A stretch of DNA of 45,233 bases, taken from the sequence record OR594180. One strand, given 5' to 3'. This DNA comes from Escherichia phage vB_EcoM_SHAK7693. A program made the translations under genes and the position numbers. The first letter of the stretch is position 1; each line of letters begins with the position of its first letter. Of the stretch, positions 25,782-33,862 are shown in pieces. Below the pieces are notes generated by a model. The model saw nothing but the letters and a program-made list of their open reading frames with translations. It was not told the DNA's origin and ran no database searches.

Positions 25782-27202
25782 TTCTTACCTCGTCTCTTCA
25801 TGTAATTAAGCAATTCTTCCTGGACCGATTTCTTCTCGTCGGTACGCGCGGCAACAACCTCATCCAGCGTGTCTCGGGCTATTATTTGATAAATGAATAC
25901 AGACCTTTTGTATCCAGATTGCATCTGCCTTACCGGACCTATGCGCTCGATAACCTGCAGATAATGTTCCAGGTTCCATCCCTGACTCATAAAAGCCATG
26001 TGGTGTCCGCCGTGTTGTAGCGACAGCCCGTGACCCGCAGAGGCCGGGTGTATTAGGAGCATAGGTATCTCGCCACGGTTCCACGCTTCCATCTGCTTAT
26101 TACCCTTAGCGCCTTTGGCAAACGCCTGGGCTTGAGGGAATCGCTTAAGGATACGTTCCAGTTCGTGCTTGAACTGATAGGCCACCAGTAACGGTGCCCC
26201 CTGTAACTCCTCAACAATGGACTCGAGCGCATCCAGTTTCGTATCGTGCACTTTCTCCCAGTCTTTGGTTGCTTCTCCGTCTGGCCCCGATACATATACA
26301 GCGCCGGATGCAATCTGTAGGCACTTCGACGTCTTCGCGGCAGCGTTAGCCGCTTCAACTTCTCCGCTCTCCAGTTCCGCGAATAACTTTTCCTCCATAT
26401 CGATGTACGCCTGACGCGCCTTCTTCGGCAGGTCAATTTCCACTGGCACGATAATCGGCGCTTCGCAACCAAACCACTCGGCGGCGTCAACCGTGAGACT
26501 AATGTCTTTCATCTTCTGATGAATCTCATTATCCGCACCCGGTCGTGCGTGATACTCCCGCGCCATCGCGGATTTCCCTTTCTGTACCGAGTTAAACCAG
26601 CGGTCTGTGAATGCCGTGTACGAAGAACCAAGGCGCTCGCCAGCGTCGATAAACCAGTTCTGCCCCCACAAGTCCTTGAGGCCGTTCGGCGACGGTGTGC
26701 CTGTCAGGTTAATGAAACGCTTAACCTTTCCGAACGCCACTTTGCTTAGCGCCTTAGCCCGTTTGCTTCCTCCAGAACGGCTACGGAAAGATTTCAGCTT
26801 CGTGCTCTCATCAGCAACGATAACCGTAAAAGGCCAGTCGTCTTTGCCGTAGTAGTCAATCAGCCACTCGATAACTTCGTAGTTTGTGCACACCACGTTA
26901 GCATCTGACTCCAGCGCCGCGATACGGCGCTTCTCTGAACCGGTTGCGTCTACGACACTCAGACAGGGGAAGTTCCAACGTGCCTGTTCCGCGGGCCACG
27001 TACCTGACGCAACACGTAAAGGAGCCAGAATTAACACTCGGTCGTCGTCATTAAGTTGCCCATTACGGAACAGCCGATTGAGAACCCACAACGTTGACCC
27101 CGACTTACCGCTGCCCATGCTCGCCCAGATATTGCAGCGATGGTGCCGCAGCATGAACGAAGTCATGAGCTTCTGGTATTCGCGCCTTTGAAACTTACTC
27201 AT
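25778..27202 (-). CDS. SNF2-family helicase
   Basis: Walker A GSGKS, DEST box, LTGTP, C-terminal helicase motif GHGLSLQ. Confidence 0.8.
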   Translation of the reverse strand: MSKFQRREYQKLMTSFMLRHHRCNIWASMGSGKSGSTLWVLNRLFRNGQLNDDDRVLILAPLRVASGTWPAEQARWNFPCLSVVDATGSEKRRIAALESDANVVCTNYEVIEWLIDYYGKDDWPFTVIVADESTKLKSFRSRSGGSKRAKALSKVAFGKVKRFINLTGTPSPNGLKDLWGQNWFIDAGERLGSSYTAFTDRWFNSVQKGKSAMAREYHARPGADNEIHQKMKDISLTVDAAEWFGCEAPIIVPVEIDLPKKARQAYIDMEEKLFAELESGEVEAANAAAKTSKCLQIASGAVYVSGPDGEATKDWEKVHDTKLDALESIVEELQGAPLLVAYQFKHELERILKRFPQAQAFAKGAKGNKQMEAWNRGEIPMLLIHPASAGHGLSLQHGGHHMAFMSQGWNLEHYLQVIERIGPVRQMQSGYKRSVFIYQIIARDTLDEVVAARTDEKKSVQEELLNYMKRRGKK

Positions 27203-28061
27203 TTACCGCCCCCATGAATGCCTTTATAAATTCAGCGGCTACTTGCGGGACGATGGCATTGCCATAACCGCGCAATCGTCCCACTCTGGCGGGTATCCCA
27301 TTAGCCAGCGGGAATGCGCCGGGTTCAACTGGCCTGAATTTTCCATCCCGGCATCCGAGCCAGTCAGTATCTGACCAGAAGCCGTGATGCGGATTGGTTG
27401 TGTTATTTTCAGACCCTGCTCCGTCGAGTAGTCCAGCCTGTCGAATGTTCTGTCTTTTCCGTCCTTGCGAATAACTGTCTCTCCGCTCCCTCTGTAATCG
27501 TTCGCTGTTGGGGTCGGCCATGCCAAAAGGTATTGTGCGTGCGTCGCCAGATTGCAATTCGCATTCGGTCTGTTGAAGCGTTTTTCCGCGTAGGCTTGTG
27601 GGTCTTTCGCTCTGCTGTTGTTGTCGTCCGCAACCGCTGGCGTCGGCCAGGTTGTGCGCGCCGAAGAACAGTCTGTCGCGTTTGTGCGGTGCGCCGACGC
27701 TACAAGCTGGGAGTACGGCAAACCCGACGGCGTAGTCTTCTCCTTCCAGGTGAGTTTGTAAATCGCACATCCACGATTTTGCAATTGCTGGCGCAACCTG
27801 CTCCCCAAAGAGGACTGGAGGTCGGCACTCGCTGATAAGGTCGAGGAACACAGGTGCGAGGTGTCTCTGGTCGAACTGTCCGAGTTGCTTTCCCGCCGCG
27901 CTAAACGGTTGGCAAGGCGGGCTTCCCGTCCAGAGAGGCGCATCTTCCGGAACTCCCGCAAGTCTGAGCGCGAGAGGCCAGCCGCCGATACCAGCGAAAA
28001 AAATGACACTGGGTGAACCCGTCAAGGTCTTCTGGCTTAACTTCGGTAATGCTTCTTTCAT
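27195..28061 (-). CDS. DNA (cytosine-5)-methyltransferase-like protein
   Basis: Motifs FAGIGG (I), PPCQPFS (IV), GEQV (VI), KRDRLFF (VIII), GNAIVP (X); motif I to IV spacing unusually short. Confidence 0.6.
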   Translation of the reverse strand: MKEALPKLSQKTLTGSPSVIFFAGIGGWPLALRLAGVPEDAPLWTGSPPCQPFSAAGKQLGQFDQRHLAPVFLDLISECRPPVLFGEQVAPAIAKSWMCDLQTHLEGEDYAVGFAVLPACSVGAPHKRDRLFFGAHNLADASGCGRQQQQSERPTSLRGKTLQQTECELQSGDARTIPFGMADPNSERLQRERRDSYSQGRKRQNIRQAGLLDGAGSENNTTNPHHGFWSDTDWLGCRDGKFRPVEPGAFPLANGIPARVGRLRGYGNAIVPQVAAEFIKAFMGAVNE

Positions 28062-28149
28062 CTACAACTCCAAAAGGTATGTGACCCTGCTTTATTAATT
28101 CACGCAGCCACGCTGCCGCGCTTTTATCCCATTCATTGTAGTAATTCAT
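27901..28149 (-). CDS. ORF overlapping 5' end of methyltransferase in another frame
   Basis: ATGA-coupled to upstream gene; N-terminus carries NEWDK-like motif; A7/T7 tract at 27997-28003 at frame junction. Confidence 0.3.
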   Translation of the reverse strand: MNYYNEWDKSAAAWLRELIKQGHIPFGVVDERSITEVKPEDLDGFTQCHFFRWYRRLASRAQTCGSSGRCASLDGKPALPTV

Positions 28150-28367: not shown

Positions 28368-28652
28368 CTAACTATAATAGTTCGCTATTAGGTCGTCAAC
28401 CTGTTTAAACGAACCAACGACAAAAACATTCGCACCACGTTTACGCATCCGCTCATGCTCCCGTAACTGGTGCGGGTCAGGCTTCGTGTTCTCGTCTTTC
28501 TTCACCTCGACGAACCAGATGACGCCGCCGGGGAGAATTATCAGCAGGTCAGGAGCGCCCACTCTATTTTCGTACGACAATTTGCGTACAAGGCCCCCCA
28601 GGGCCTCGAATCGGTCTTTTGCGTATTTCTGAATCTTGCCTTCCGGGGTCAT
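28368..28652 (-). CDS. VRR-NUC domain nuclease
   Basis: GAPDLLIILPGG...FVEVK PD-(D/E)XK-like core; ATGA-coupled start. Confidence 0.65.
   Translation of the reverse strand: MTPEGKIQKYAKDRFEALGGLVRKLSYENRVGAPDLLIILPGGVIWFVEVKKDENTKPDPHQLREHERMRKRGANVFVVGSFKQVDDLIANYYS
28371..28399 (-). promoter_or_regulatory. class-B promoter (TTGACG-N17-TATAGT)
   Basis: Near-consensus sigma70 hexamers; spacer contains GCGAACTAT element shared with 32100 and 34976. Confidence 0.45.
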
Positions 28653-28801
28653 GACCGCAGAACCCAAGTTATAAACGCCCCGCCGAGAACGGCAACGCCA
28701 ACAAACTTAAAGAACAGGCCATAACAGAACATCGCGGCTATCCCCGCACCGAGTAACAGTGCGAGCATGGTTACTATCGTCCAAAATACAAACATTGTCA
28801 T
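28649..28801 (-). CDS. small membrane protein (50 aa)
   Basis: Hand-translated; hydrophobic; RBS GGAGG; ATGA-coupled. Confidence 0.35.
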   Translation of the reverse strand: MTMFVFWTIVTMLALLLGAGIAAMFCYGLFFKFVGVAVLGGAFITWVLRS

Positions 28802-28887
28802 AATACGCACCCCTCCCGTTTTGTATGCTCAATGCCACAGCGCGGACAGATTCGGCAGTCTTCTTCGTAGAACCAGTAAATTTTCAT
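28798..28887 (-). CDS. micro-ORF (28 aa) with CxxCxxC
   Basis: Hand-translated; ATGA overlaps at both ends. Confidence 0.25.
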   Translation of the reverse strand: MKIYWFYEEDCRICPRCGIEHTKREGCVL

Positions 28888-29015
28888 TCCAGCACCCACA
28901 GATAAATTGCGACTAACATACCCAATACGGCGACCATCATGCCGTATTGACCCTCGTGGCAGTAGACACCGGCGGTGAATCCCGCCAGTACTGCGATAAT
29001 CAGTTTACTTAGCAT
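28884..29015 (-). CDS. small membrane protein (43 aa)
   Basis: Hand-translated; hydrophobic; starts inside polymerase 3' end. Confidence 0.3.
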   Translation of the reverse strand: MLSKLIIAVLAGFTAGVYCHEGQYGMMVAVLGMLVAIYLWVLE

Positions 29016-31206
29016 AGCGTTTTAACTCCTGCCCTTCCGCTACAAGAGGGAACCCCTCGGCCCACTCAGGCAGAGAACACATTAATTTTTCCAGTTCGGC
29101 CACCGTGTACTCAGGGGTATCTGGGGTTTCACATACCAGTTCATCGTGTACCGAAAGCACGATAGGATACCCGCCACGCTCAACGTTAATCATCGCATAT
29201 GCCAGTAAATCACGGCACAGCGCCTGGACAATGTTTTCACATGCTTTACCGCCGTGGGTGTATAGAGTTGTCCATTGGCGGGTTAACTGGTTTTCGCCCT
29301 GATACTTGATTCGGACATTCGTGTTTACCCGTCCATCTTCGTCTGTTTCCTTTGTCACACTAACGCCGATTCCCGGATACGAGAGGATACGGCCTGACGG
29401 CAACTCCATACACAACCACCAGCCAGGAACCTTCCTGCCCGACGAATCAAATTCTACGGTACGCCATATGCGGATAGCCCTTTCACCATTCCGGCGCAAG
29501 TGTGCCCCGGCCCAAAATTCACGACCAGGATTACGAACAGCGGCTAAAATTCCGTCTTTAAGGTCGCGCCAGAACGCTACTGTTTCCGGGTGTGACTCGC
29601 GCCACATACGCTTGATTGCATCACATGTGCGCCACACTTTCTTGTCCAGAATATATGATGGTCGGTCATCCTTTTCACCAGGATGCGGTGGTCGCTTGGC
29701 TTCCTGAATACGCGCCCACTCATACCCACGTGCGGTAGCAGCCCAGATGTGGTCGGGGAAAGTCCCGTCCATTGTTTTTGCCATCTCAATAAGGTCAAGA
29801 CCTAAGTTTTTAGCAAACGTAACGAACGCTCCGACGCCGCCCTCGTAGCCGAGACCCAGTTCGCATGCTTTGCCTATCTGTCTGATTTCCTTAAAGTTTT
29901 TCTTAATATCGTCGGGGTCCATGCCAAACATCTTACCTGCGGTTACACAGTAAATATCCAGTCCGGCACGGAACGTATCGAGCGCGGTTTCTTCTCCTGC
30001 TAACCACGCTAACCCACGACCTTCGACGTTAGAGTAATCAGCTACGACAAACTTGTGCCCGGCTTCCGGTATGATGCAGCTACGGACCGTCGATGCCGTC
30101 AGCTTGGCTACGTCAAATCGGCGGTGAGCACGACCCTTAAGTAACGCTGAAATGCCTTTATCCAGTTCATCATCGTGATAGTAACCGCGCGCCAGGTTCT
30201 GCGGCTGAAAGCCTTTACCCGCCCATCGCAGAGTGCGTTTTGCCCCGCCGTACTGCAAGCAACCACGACGGCGGTCGTCAGACGAGCGGCCCAACAGAAG
30301 CGGGTTATATTTCGTGGACGCTGTTGACGCGGCACCGAGGCGCATTTCGATAATCGTCCGGGCGTCGTCCGGTAAATCATCATCTGCCAACAGGTCGTTA
30401 AGCGTAGACTTCTGCGCGTTGTGAATACGGTGCGCAGGCGCAAGTTCACGCAGAATCGGCAGAAAGTCCTTACCCGTAAGCGAGCCTCCGTATTTGCGCT
30501 GGGCTTCTTCCTGTAACTGCGCTTTATGTTTCTCTACGGCATCAATAGCGGCTTCCGCCAGTGCGACGTCAACCTTAAACCCGCGGTCATTAATTAACTG
30601 GTCCAGTTCCAGTACGCGGTCCTCGAACTCGGAGTTACCCCAACGCGGCAGCTTATGGAAGACTTCACGCATCGCAGTGATGTCGCTCACGGCGTACTTG
30701 ATGAACAGCTCCCACTCATCAGGGTGTGTTTCGGCGGTGTAGCGTCTGATTTTGTAGTTCTTCGGCGTCGGCTTAGAGAAACGCTGAATCAGCGCCTTGC
30801 CGCGTTTATCTTTCGCATTGTCAGCGGACACGCCCAGCACTTCGCACAACGCATCAAGTGACCCCGGCAGCGCGTGACGAAACGCCCAAATCATTGTATC
30901 AATGGTGTTGCTTACGGGAATATCAAAACCCCAGCAGTTCTTCATGATGAGTCTGTCGAACATTGAGCCGTTGTGCCACACCATCTTAATACGACTGTTC
31001 GGCTTAACTAGGCGGCGTAACGCGCGATACAAATCTCCCGGCATGTCGCTGCCATCGGTGCAATCCCACACCTGTACAGGCTCGTCATCAAAAGCATAGG
31101 TACAGATAAGCACTTCGGTTGACGGGTGTTCGGCGTAAGCGTAGGACCCGACTTTCTTTAAATCGGCTTCGGAGAATGTTTCAAAGTCCAGGTATAAGTA
31201 GCTCAT
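29005..31206 (-). CDS. DNA polymerase I (family A) with 3'-5' exonuclease domain
   Basis: N-terminal LYLDFETFS exo motif; DYSNVEGR and RQIGKACELGLGYEGG palm motifs. Confidence 0.85.
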   Translation of the reverse strand: MSYLYLDFETFSEADLKKVGSYAYAEHPSTEVLICTYAFDDEPVQVWDCTDGSDMPGDLYRALRRLVKPNSRIKMVWHNGSMFDRLIMKNCWGFDIPVSNTIDTMIWAFRHALPGSLDALCEVLGVSADNAKDKRGKALIQRFSKPTPKNYKIRRYTAETHPDEWELFIKYAVSDITAMREVFHKLPRWGNSEFEDRVLELDQLINDRGFKVDVALAEAAIDAVEKHKAQLQEEAQRKYGGSLTGKDFLPILRELAPAHRIHNAQKSTLNDLLADDDLPDDARTIIEMRLGAASTASTKYNPLLLGRSSDDRRRGCLQYGGAKRTLRWAGKGFQPQNLARGYYHDDELDKGISALLKGRAHRRFDVAKLTASTVRSCIIPEAGHKFVVADYSNVEGRGLAWLAGEETALDTFRAGLDIYCVTAGKMFGMDPDDIKKNFKEIRQIGKACELGLGYEGGVGAFVTFAKNLGLDLIEMAKTMDGTFPDHIWAATARGYEWARIQEAKRPPHPGEKDDRPSYILDKKVWRTCDAIKRMWRESHPETVAFWRDLKDGILAAVRNPGREFWAGAHLRRNGERAIRIWRTVEFDSSGRKVPGWWLCMELPSGRILSYPGIGVSVTKETDEDGRVNTNVRIKYQGENQLTRQWTTLYTHGGKACENIVQALCRDLLAYAMINVERGGYPIVLSVHDELVCETPDTPEYTVAELEKLMCSLPEWAEGFPLVAEGQELKRYAK

Positions 31207-31358
31207 TTCTTTTTCCTTAAATCCAGTGCCTTCGTTTCACTTAATCTTATTTTCATACAATCACGGCAAATCCACACATGCCTGTACCCGGCCCGGTACT
31301 CATCTGCGTACCACGGAAGCGGTTTCATATAGCGATAAACGTGCTTACAGAAAAACAT
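31203..31358 (-). CDS. Cys-rich small protein (51 aa)
   Basis: Hand-translated; RBS AAGGG; stop overlaps polymerase ATG. Confidence 0.35.
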   Translation of the reverse strand: MFFCKHVYRYMKPLPWYADEYRAGYRHVWICRDCMKIRLSETKALDLRKKK

Positions 31359-31416: not shown

Positions 31417-32046
31417 TTAACGGCGGCGACGTTCGCGGCGCGGTGCTTCATCTTCTTCGTCGTCTTCCAGGTCGTCAGTGCTCGCTACTACACTGGAGCC
31501 TCCGAAGCGTTTACCTTCACCCATATACTTGATGCCGAGGATGGTAGCGCACAGGTTTTTCCAATCTTTGTGCCACCATAATTCTACAGATACGTTTGCG
31601 ACACATCCGCTATATACCTGCTCGCCTTCGATTTCTTTCCCGTCGATGTTGAAATCAGGCTCGGTTTGTTTTTCACCTTTAGCCGATGTCATAATCACCG
31701 GTTGACGGTTGTTAGTGGCCCGGAAATACAGACCTTCTTCAAAATCCTCAATAGGATTGTCTCGCATTGCCAGGTCACGTACACAGCACTTGTCCGCGTG
31801 GTGGTCTACACCGTAGTTGGCCTTCATCCATTTCTCGGCAGCGGCGGCACCGATTGCATCTGTTACAACTTCCAGCGCGGTGTCATAAAGCGCGTCGATT
31901 TGAGGGTGGTCAGGCTGCATAAGAACCGTAACCTGGTATTTACCCTTAATCAGTTTACCGGTTTTCTTGTCCTCAGAGTCGGCAGCACGTTCGAATACGT
32001 TAACCCATGCAGTGTTTACTTTACGCAGATTCAGTTTAATACCCAT
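31417..32046 (-). CDS. putative ssDNA-binding protein (DUF2815-like)
   Basis: 209 aa with acidic C-terminal stretch DDLEDDEEDE; neighbours DUF2800-like nuclease and polymerase. Confidence 0.45.
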   Translation of the reverse strand: MGIKLNLRKVNTAWVNVFERAADSEDKKTGKLIKGKYQVTVLMQPDHPQIDALYDTALEVVTDAIGAAAAEKWMKANYGVDHHADKCCVRDLAMRDNPIEDFEEGLYFRATNNRQPVIMTSAKGEKQTEPDFNIDGKEIEGEQVYSGCVANVSVELWWHKDWKNLCATILGIKYMGEGKRFGGSSVVASTDDLEDDEEDEAPRRERRRR

Positions 32047-32132: not shown

Positions 32133-32624
32133 TTATTTGCCGTGATTTTCGTGGAAACCGTACTTAACCTCTGCGGCCTTTCGCGCTGCTATTGCGCCGT
32201 CGATAGTTTCAAAACGTCCGAGATGAATTAGTTTCTTCTCAACTTTTATCTCAGCTCGCCATTTGCCGCGGGTTTTATCGAAACTAACACCCGTCACCCC
32301 TGACGTGTTGTTGCGGGCTAAAGATAAATTACGGCTGTTCTCTTTTCGGGTTGTTTTCCTTAAATTAGAAAGAAGATTATTTTCCCGATTATGGTCAATA
32401 TGGTCTATCTCCTCTCCAGGTTGAAGTTTATTTTCAGGGTTCATCATATCCCATATAATTCTATGCGCCAGAAATGTCCTTCCACGTAAACGTACGCACA
32501 CATAGCCCCAATTACGGACAGACGCGACCTCGCTCCCAGCGGGTGCACGATTGCTGTTAGTTACGCGCCAATACAACTTACCGGTATTGGTATCATACCT
32601 AAAATAATCTTCCCATTTAATCAT
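32133..32624 (-). CDS. HNH homing endonuclease with AP2 domain
   Basis: DHIDHNRENN...ENSRN HNH motif; GVSFDKTRGKWRAEI...LGRFETIDGA AP2 domain. Confidence 0.8.
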   Translation of the reverse strand: MIKWEDYFRYDTNTGKLYWRVTNSNRAPAGSEVASVRNWGYVCVRLRGRTFLAHRIIWDMMNPENKLQPGEEIDHIDHNRENNLLSNLRKTTRKENSRNLSLARNNTSGVTGVSFDKTRGKWRAEIKVEKKLIHLGRFETIDGAIAARKAAEVKYGFHENHGK

Positions 32625-33862
32625 TCCAAATCCTCCTCTGTTACCCCCTTCCACTCAGGTCGTTTGTCGTCCGCCGTTGTAACGCATGGGGCTCCGGGCT
32701 TACGCGTGATGAAGTTTTTTAGTTCTTCTTCTGGGATAACTTTCAAGGCTGCTGTAGGGGTCATGATTGACTTAGTCATAACTTTATCACCAAATTTAGC
32801 AATAACGGCATCGGGGTCCGCCCAGGAGCGATTGCCATCCCGCCCTTCAACCAGTTTGTACCCCTGAACTTTCTTACCGGAATGCAATGCGGCGGACATC
32901 GCTTTTTCAACCTTGTCAATGTGCTGACGCAACAACGGCAACTTCTCATACTCAGCCACGAGTTGCTCAGGTGTCAGTTCCGGCAAAAAGTCGTCCTCCA
33001 GTTCTTCTGCCAGTACCGAATTAACAGTCTTCGTTCTGGCAGCGCACTGTTCAGAGAACCTGCACCACTGGCAACCATCAACCGACGGCTTAAAGTCTGA
33101 CGCTTTCAGGTTCTTCTTACCGCGGAAGTACGCATCGAGCGCTAACAGTGCGCGTTTCTGTGCGAACTTAGCGAACAGTTCCAGACCTTGAACAGAGATA
33201 TCCCACTCCGAAGCACCGCCAGCATACGGCTGGAAGATGACCAGACGAACAGTTGTTATGTTATAACGTCTCTTGAGTCGGCGATAAACACCGAGAGCGT
33301 AAAGCATAAGCTGCTTGTTTTCTTTCGCTTCGACACGATGCCGTCCGGTTTTCAGGTCGCCAATAATGAGCATGTGCTCGTCGGTGTTTGCCAGGTCCTG
33401 AACGGCAACGAGGTCGGCGGTCCCGAACGTCTCAACGCCTTCATATCCCGGATGCAGCACCTCGGTAAGATTTACGCGCATTTCCAGCTTGGCGTAAGTC
33501 GCTACATCGATAATAGCTTTGCAGTAGTCGGTGTACTTACGCACCTGCTCAATCATGTCCGCCGTAATAAGTACCGCACCTTTCACAGGGCTGATTAACG
33601 CCTTAATCTGGCCTTTGCCTTCATCCAGCACGTAAGCGCCAACTTCACGCTCTAACGGCAATGCAGTGCCACGGATATAGGCGTTTAGATGGACCTCTGC
33701 TATGGTGTGGCACGCGGTCCCTGTAACTGCGGCTTTACCCGACGTGTTAGGAATATCTTTTTCACAGGCTAGCGATGCAGCGCAGCTTAGCCACTTTTTA
33801 GCGCCCGACGGCGACAGTAAGGCGTGTACATCGTTATTGCCGCCGCGTTCTTTTAGGATCAT
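32621..33862 (-). CDS. PD-(D/E)XK nuclease, DUF2800/Cas4-like
   Basis: N-terminal LSPSGAKKWLSC hallmark; C-terminal Cys cluster CQWCRFSEQC; ATGA-coupled. Confidence 0.5.
   Translation of the reverse strand: MILKERGGNNDVHALLSPSGAKKWLSCAASLACEKDIPNTSGKAAVTGTACHTIAEVHLNAYIRGTALPLEREVGAYVLDEGKGQIKALISPVKGAVLITADMIEQVRKYTDYCKAIIDVATYAKLEMRVNLTEVLHPGYEGVETFGTADLVAVQDLANTDEHMLIIGDLKTGRHRVEAKENKQLMLYALGVYRRLKRRYNITTVRLVIFQPYAGGASEWDISVQGLELFAKFAQKRALLALDAYFRGKKNLKASDFKPSVDGCQWCRFSEQCAARTKTVNSVLAEELEDDFLPELTPEQLVAEYEKLPLLRQHIDKVEKAMSAALHSGKKVQGYKLVEGRDGNRSWADPDAVIAKFGDKVMTKSIMTPTAALKVIPEEELKNFITRKPGAPCVTTADDKRPEWKGVTEEDLE

Follow-up and report, generated by a model that had tools for sequence, protein, structure and literature searches.

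The interval between the DNA polymerase gene and a VRR-NUC-type nuclease gene in Escherichia phage vB_EcoM_SHAK7693 most probably holds three genuine small genes, here called p43, p29, and p50 after the lengths of their products, which together with a fourth, p51, at the start of the polymerase gene would be translationally coupled members of a minus-strand replication operon. In this reading, to which we give a probability of about 80%, p29 is the core member and the carrier of a Shine-Dalgarno (SD) sequence for the gene that follows it, and p43, p50, and p51 are optional cassettes. The window, by which we mean the whole stretch of 45,233 nucleotides that was analysed (record OR594180), belongs to a siphophage of Kagunavirus (Guernseyvirinae), a virulent group. 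A search of a phage collection matched the region to 584 phage records, the closest being Kagunavirus 536P11 at 97.8% identity, and numerous siphophages of Escherichia and Salmonella within the Guernseyvirinae (Kagunavirus and Jerseyvirus) match it at 85–91%.

Every gene between 25.7 and 32.7 kb of the window lies on the minus strand, and p43, p29, and p50 take up all the space that separates polA from the VRR-NUC gene. The chain begins upstream with polA (29005–31206, minus strand), which encodes a family A DNA polymerase of 733 aa whose relatives are annotated as DNA polymerase, with a DnaQ-like exonuclease and DNA_pol_A. Its last codons contain the ATG of p43 (28884–29015, minus strand), a hydrophobic ORF of 43 aa with the sequence MLSKLIIAVLAGFTAGVYCHEGQYGMMVAVLGMLVAIYLWVLE, which is followed by p29 (28798–28887, minus strand), a hydrophilic Cys/His ORF of 29 aa with the sequence MKIYWFYEEDCRICPRCGIEHTKREGCVL, and by p50 (28649–28801, minus strand), a very hydrophobic ORF of 50 aa (MTMFVFWTIV...VLRS). 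The VRR-NUC-type gene (28368–28652, minus strand) encodes 94 aa when read from the ATG at 28652, matches the endonuclease family phrog_93 (E = 4.4e-33) and, weakly, Pfam VRR_NUC, and is annotated in phage fFiEco02 (vB_EcoS_fFiEco02) as a VRR-NUC domain protein. Start calls for this gene differ among records, orf38 of phage S102 being taken from an upstream TTG/GTG with a 19-nt overlap of p50 (28368–28667) and not from the ATG of the ATGA junction. On the far side of polA lies p51 (31203–31358, minus strand), a basic ORF of 51 aa.

The original prediction had described a chain of three micro-ORFs at this place, and read on the minus strand both its coordinates and its description are correct, save that the middle peptide, given there as 28 aa, has 29. 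It had also joined each ORF to its neighbour by an ATGA, which is what we find at p43/p29, p29/p50, and p50/VRR-NUC, whereas polA and p43 share an 11-nt overlap, ATGCTAAGTAA. The 51-aa ORF, which had been described as coupled to the polymerase start, overlaps the start of polA through an ATGA, although to call a protein with 3 cysteines Cys-rich is generous. With GRAVY values of 1.43 and 1.77, p43 and p50 are as hydrophobic as had been thought, and p29 and p51 are hydrophilic. Taken together, the evidence supports two hydrophobic peptides and one Cys-motif peptide encoded by ATGA-coupled micro-ORFs, from whose conservation we infer that they are translated.

These ORFs have not gone unnoticed: GenBank records of relatives (fFiEco02, fBC-Eco01, and S102) already carry them as CDS, so that they are already catalogued as small hypothetical genes, in a genome where small overlapped genes are usual. 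In fFiEco02, FE2_041, FE2_040, FE2_039, and FE2_043 (QNO11602, QNO11601, QNO11600, and QNO11604) are the counterparts of p43, p29, p50, and p51 at 84–100% aa identity, in identical order and with identical overlaps; there is no difference of substance, and all are named "hypothetical protein." A p29 match falls where there is no annotated feature in several relatives, in which it was missed by gene callers and by some GenBank records. Along their whole length, p43 and p50 match phrog_10404 (E = 7.5e-31, residues 1–43 on profile positions 1–43 of 43) and phrog_14925 (E = 5.3e-34, residues 1–50 on positions 1–50 of 50), and p29 matches phrog_38225 (E = 2.5e-22, residues 1–28 on positions 5–32 of 36), all three families being labelled as of unknown function; p51 has a weak PHROG match only, to phrog_7696 (E = 1.7e-3). 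Sequence searches of Pfam, NCBIfam, and the PDB returned sub-threshold matches only and no protein of known function. Papers on Kagunavirus K1B4 (transcriptome), fBC-Eco01, EcoPhCCP1, and the BASEL collection hold no functional data on the ORFs, and the K1B4 transcriptome, the only such study of a relative, annotated 57 genes and did not resolve them.

The distribution of the peptides is uneven. Phage records with p29 number 444 (324 from Salmonella and 102 from Escherichia phages), those with p43 number 223 (106 and 102), and those with p50 number 120 (50 and 60). All 102 Escherichia-phage records with p29 are thus equalled by 102 with p43, whereas p43 is found in 106 of the 324 Salmonella-phage records carrying p29, and from these counts we take p29 to be the core, p43 to have been lost from Salmonella phages in many cases, and p50 to be optional. 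In a collection of 5.8 billion proteins, p50 has 103 clusters with identities of 73% or more; their contigs reach about 45 kb at most, and their only name is "hypothetical." Among 1.84 billion cluster representatives, only two truly belong to p29; the third match of an exhaustive search, P0106, turned out to be repetitive junk and no relative. A prophage origin was considered and set aside, since 5,426 complete E. coli genomes gave no match and 185,579 representative prokaryotic genomes yielded no relative of p50. By these searches, the peptides appear to be orphan families restricted to one group of virulent phages.

The pattern of substitutions argues that purifying selection acts on each of the four ORFs in its own frame. 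We collected 79 related loci from IMG/VR by means of the VRR-NUC protein, placed the peptides in them by tblastn, and computed dN/dS as pooled pairwise Nei-Gojobori values over 42 distinct sequences of p43, 33 of p29, 22 of p50, and 9 of p51. In frame, dN/dS is 0.21–0.24 for p43, 0.06–0.07 for p29, 0.17 for p50, and 0.11 for p51, next to 0.12 for VRR-NUC and 0.13 for the polA C-terminus, and the other two sense frames of the ORFs give 0.8–2.7. Conservation and dN/dS in related phages were the check that the original prediction had put forward, and its outcome, in-frame values of 0.07–0.21 that are comparable to those of polA and VRR-NUC, favours the peptides. A segment-wise repeat over all six frames gave the same answer, and in the minus-strand frames the differences among relatives cluster at third codon positions. 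In the wobble-sharing antisense frame, dN/dS is low as well, which mirrors the sense value as expected, and stops interrupt that frame. The sampled sequences are close (86–94% nucleotide identity within the architecture of the window), so the pooled dN/dS counts shared ancestry repeatedly. Mere openness of the ORFs was discarded as a test, since many frames on both strands are open at this 86–94% identity in the 17 relatives of the same architecture. No other member of the slot is as strongly conserved as p29, and part of the conservation of its C-terminus may stem from the SD embedded there and not from the peptide.

How much weight can be given to the chain of junctions itself? The window has 28 ATGA junctions between two ATG-initiated ORFs of at least 25 aa, 19 on the minus and 9 on the plus strand, where Markov-1 random sequence has 4.3 ± 2.1 per strand; a three-junction ATGA chain occurs in about 1 in 100 random windows; and fFiEco02 has about 21 four-nt overlaps among its 77 annotated features. 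An ATGA chain is ordinary for this genome and by itself not very improbable, and we hold the chain to be real because its junctions are conserved among relatives. The overlap of polA stop and p43 start, ATGC[C/T]AAGTAA, is kept in 51 of 54 relatives, and the p43/p29 junction is ATGA or GTGA in 46 of 46. The stop/start overlaps that mark translationally coupled genes of an operon are therefore present here in a conserved arrangement.

The SD sequences suggest how such coupling might be organised. The duplex energies with the anti-SD are −10.8 kcal/mol for p50, −7.2 for p43, −6.0 for p29, and −3.6 for VRR-NUC, on a background mean of −2.75, so that the SD of p50 (GAGGGG, in the p29 3' end) is the strongest among the genes tested. 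It lies at 28810–28817 (minus strand) as GGGAGGGG, within the codons for REGC. The motif GAGGGGTG is in every p29 3' end listed, in all architectures, and in the DNA alignment the sequence after p29 begins at ...GAGGGGTG[C/T][G/A]TATTATGA. In the short architectures, VRR-NUC comes directly after p29 and takes the p29-embedded SD. The SD at the 3' end of p29 would accordingly serve whichever gene comes next, which here is p50. Since p50 occupies the strong SD and the SD of VRR-NUC is weak, VRR-NUC probably needs reinitiation after p50, and its translation is suggested to depend on that of p50. If so, ribosomes would be handed from gene to gene, from polA to p43 by the 11-nt overlap and then to p29, p50, and VRR-NUC via ATGA, with p29 as a soluble micro-protein whose last codons, R-E-G-C, would double as the SD of the next gene.

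The interval between polA and VRR-NUC is a mosaic slot, for which 54 loci from Guernseyvirinae show 13 architectures. Most frequent are p43-p29 by itself, in 17 loci, the p43-p29-p50 of the window, in 13, and p43-p29 followed by a 63–64-aa Cys ORF and p50, in 6; rarer ones have p43-p29 with the Cys ORF, p43-p29 with a hydrophobic peptide of 23–25 aa, or an HNH endonuclease before p43 or after p29. In the DNA alignment, every breakpoint is at a gene junction. We would picture p43 and p50 as gained and lost exactly at the TTATGA junction, and p51 as likewise optional upstream of polA, where the slot is empty (57–59 nt) in the majority of loci, 10 loci carry p51, and the others have an ORF of 92 aa or an HNH endonuclease of 157 aa. 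The 23–25-aa peptides, which hhalign relates to p50 with a probability of 8.8%, may be deletion derivatives of p50, as the DNA alignment hints.

Some loci depart from this scheme within the genes. An in-frame deletion of 116 nt, present in many Jerseyvirus-type relatives (L014, L033, L037, L043, L046, L049, and L052), fuses the first seven codons of p43 to p29 (MLSKLII-YYFREEDC...; MLSKLIIYYFREEDCRICPRCG...), with or without p50, and in the 72-aa database protein P0104 a frameshift joins helix 1 of p43 to p29. In the deletion and frameshift variants alike, p29 is still translatable from the p43 start. The 63–64-aa ORF (..MPEWEFIMVMGDGFFSD.C.GCTHKGVYYSEHDIYQAYFLRNPDAEPLL) stands between p29 and p50 or VRR-NUC with an ATGA on both sides (in L002, L004, L008, L016, L028, L047, and others), and an NCBIfam search with it gave no match. 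Distant phages, in which VRR-NUC is 40–53% identical, have unrelated small ORFs between polA and VRR-NUC, some of them hydrophobic. At a VRR-NUC identity of about 40–46%, these are a 49-aa ORF just upstream of VRR-NUC in L067, a 51-aa ORF in L070 and L072, and others in L061, L062, L065, L073, and L076, and they include one canonical zinc knuckle (C-x2-C-x4-H-x4-C) and several hydrophobic-helix peptides. This may reflect functional analogy or the mere abundance of such small genes.

Could the micro-ORFs be mainly translational relays from polA to VRR-NUC that set the level of the nuclease, with peptides of little or no function? The weak SD of VRR-NUC (−3.6 kcal/mol) and the interchangeable content of the slot are what one would expect of a relay, as is the stop of the preceding ORF, which overlaps the VRR-NUC start almost always, even in very divergent relatives. 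A relay would leave the amino acid sequence unconstrained, however, yet in-frame dN/dS is 0.07–0.21 and each peptide forms a tight family of conserved length. The shortest natural architecture, moreover, couples VRR-NUC to p29 directly, and p43 and p50 are therefore dispensable for a relay. We consider this explanation quite unlikely as the main reason for the ORFs.

Two further explanations would deny that the three ORFs are separate genes at all. They lie in successive frames without a spacer, and fused or frameshifted variants are known (the 72-aa P0104 and a 33–36-aa p43N-p29), as would be expected if they were frameshift-broken remnants of one larger gene, but a fused homolog, which would have about 120 aa, did not turn up in 79 IMG/VR loci, 584 phage records, or large protein collections. 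Remnants of a single gene would also not be expected to occur independently, as p43, p29, and p50 do, to show purifying selection each on its own frame, or to have other genes inserted precisely between them, and we regard such a pseudogene as very improbable. Even less credit can be given to a non-coding DNA or RNA element (an origin, a promoter, or a structured RNA) or to coding on the plus strand. A weak promoter-like match (28801–28773, minus strand) and a weak terminator-like hairpin (28748–28733) are within chance numbers: a scan found no excess of promoters or terminators over shuffled sequence, and an Rfam scan of the whole window matched no family. The low dN/dS of the wobble-sharing antisense frames, which would suit plus-strand coding, is the expected mirror of sense constraint; variation is concentrated at the third positions of minus-strand codons, and no plus-strand ORF covers a whole unit or has a layout of start, SD, and stop like that of the minus strand. 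Coupled small genes, with p29 as their core, thus remain our preferred reading.

If the peptides are made, what kind of proteins would they be? The original prediction had seen a CxxCxxC motif in p29. A Cys-motif peptide it is, but CxxCxxC is not its conserved motif, because 6 of 30 variants have R or F in place of the first cysteine (C11). These 30 distinct variants share an almost fixed core, RIC[P/L]RCG..HTKREGC; no variant alters C14 or C27, C17 is changed once (to Y), and H21 twice (once to Q and once to Y), so that the conserved pattern is C14-x2-C17-x3-H21-x5-C27, in which three zinc ligands look secure and the fourth ambiguous. Searches for a zinc finger gave nothing significant, the best Pfam match being zf_C2H2_ZNF598 (E = 0.22), with nothing in NCBIfam; the best PDB match is COX5B (E = 0.4), and all sub-threshold PDB matches fall on zinc-binding CPxCG sites. 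In p29, C-P-R-C-G precedes an H and a C whose spacing resembles that of a knuckle, as in the zinc knuckles and ribbons of CPxCG type (for example the retroviral CCHC, RpoM, Nop10, and the zinc site of COX5B), although its C-x2-C-x3-H-x5-C differs from the canonical C-x2-C-x4-H-x4-C. On this pattern, p29 is plausibly, and we think probably, a zinc knuckle. In p51, C4, H6, and C31-x2-C34 are kept in all variants. One or two of the micro-proteins probably bind zinc.

The two hydrophobic peptides would be small inner-membrane proteins. Hessa-scale sums are −2.4 for residues 26–42 of p43 and −1.8 to −2.8 for residues 1–21 of p50, and both thus possess a hydrophobic segment of the grade that membrane insertion of an integral micro-protein calls for. 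The AF2 model of p43 has helices at residues 2–19 and 23–42 with a turn at HEG (pLDDT 81.6), the turn sequence HEGQYG is conserved, and p43 is predicted to be a two-helix membrane hairpin. In the closest relative, 536P11 (L086, 401–553), p43 has 50 aa through an in-frame tandem duplication of 21 nt (VAVLGML repeated), with a longer second helix. A hairpin for p50 is unsupported, AF2 giving one continuous 48-residue helix (residues 2–49, pLDDT 86.5). Its residue 32 is polar in all variants, a natural deletion of 5 aa (FCYGL) lies just before it, and p50 is predicted to span the membrane via one or two segments. Paralogy of p43 and p50 was rejected (hhalign probability 1.2%).

Nor does a holin/antiholin pair commend itself. 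Both peptides have hydrophobic helices, but their C-termini, ...WVLE in p43 and ...WVLRS in p50, have no charged tail, and both genes lie in the replication operon and not in a lysis cassette; in fFiEco02 the holin-like FE2_066 and FE2_067 and the endolysin FE2_068 are about 13 kb away on the opposite strand. Against the superinfection-exclusion families (T4 Imm and Sp, P22 Sie, Cor, and Llp), PHROG, Pfam, and NCBIfam searches gave no match for p43 or p50, and in relatives a distinct gene, annotated as superinfection-immunity-like, lies in another part of the genome. Small membrane proteins that act on larger membrane proteins or on membrane integrity are known from bacteria (AcrZ, MgrB, and MgtS), among type I toxins (Hok and TisB), and from phage (T4 Imm and Sp). 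All of these are alike with p43 and p50 in a size of 25–50 aa, in having 1–2 hydrophobic helices, and in having no enzymatic domain, but share no sequence similarity with them.

The surrounding genes show irregularities of their own. Downstream of the VRR-NUC gene, a C5-cytosine DNA methyltransferase gene (27195–28149, minus strand) is split into ORFs of 82 and 288 aa near 28003 by one extra T in a homopolymer, which is T7 here and T6 in phage Ivi with its intact 317-aa CDS; the extra T may have arisen in sequencing, may mark a real pseudogene, or may belong to a slippery run. A second-frame ORF of 256 aa (27239–28009, minus strand) is nested wholly within the methyltransferase gene (27195–28061). 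The nested frame is open for 217–280 codons in 15 of 15 relatives with the gene, where the third frame has 9–17 stops; pooled dN/dS is 0.45 for the main frame, 0.77 for the nested, and 1.77 for the third; and K1ind2 annotates the nested ORF as a second CDS, FDH15_gp33, "Mte8-like." A Pfam search with the nested ORF gave no match, and the frame statistics make it look like conserved dual coding. At the other end, a 173-aa homing-type endonuclease with HNH_3 and AP2 (32133–32654, minus strand) lies upstream of the gene for an Enc34-type ssDNA-binding protein (31417–32046), and fFiEco02 is without a gene at this position. Related HNH genes are also found in the polA/VRR-NUC slot of other relatives, which suggests that homing endonucleases move around the replication module.

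The mosaic accessory genes of tailed phages, with recombination at gene boundaries, are known as morons (Hendrix/Juhala), and classical morons have their own promoter and terminator. The slot described here resembles them in its small optional genes between conserved neighbours, its junction-exact breakpoints, and the unrelated cassettes that share one place. Its cassettes differ in having no detectable promoter or terminator, and would rely on the operon transcript and on translational coupling.

As to what the peptides do, p43 and p50 might act on the host envelope in the replication phase, for instance to block superinfection or to modulate one of the host's membrane proteins, and p29 might have a binding partner, a nucleic acid or a protein, in the polymerase/nuclease module; we hold either suggestion with low certainty. 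A fuller version, in which p29, as a zinc-binding micro-subunit kept by nearly all Guernseyvirinae, cooperates with the replication-recombination machinery of polymerase and VRR-NUC, and p43 and p50 are membrane effectors of an uncharacterised kind (for superinfection exclusion or for neutralising a membrane-associated host defence) whose presence tracks the host, is speculative and rather unlikely to be right as it stands. In any case, all three peptides, which are small, conserved, and restricted to phages, make suitable candidates for screens of function. The polA/VRR-NUC interval is a defined natural insertion site in which the junction GAGGGGTG..TTATGA would supply the SD, and this could aid the engineering of therapeutic phages of Kagunavirus and Jerseyvirus.
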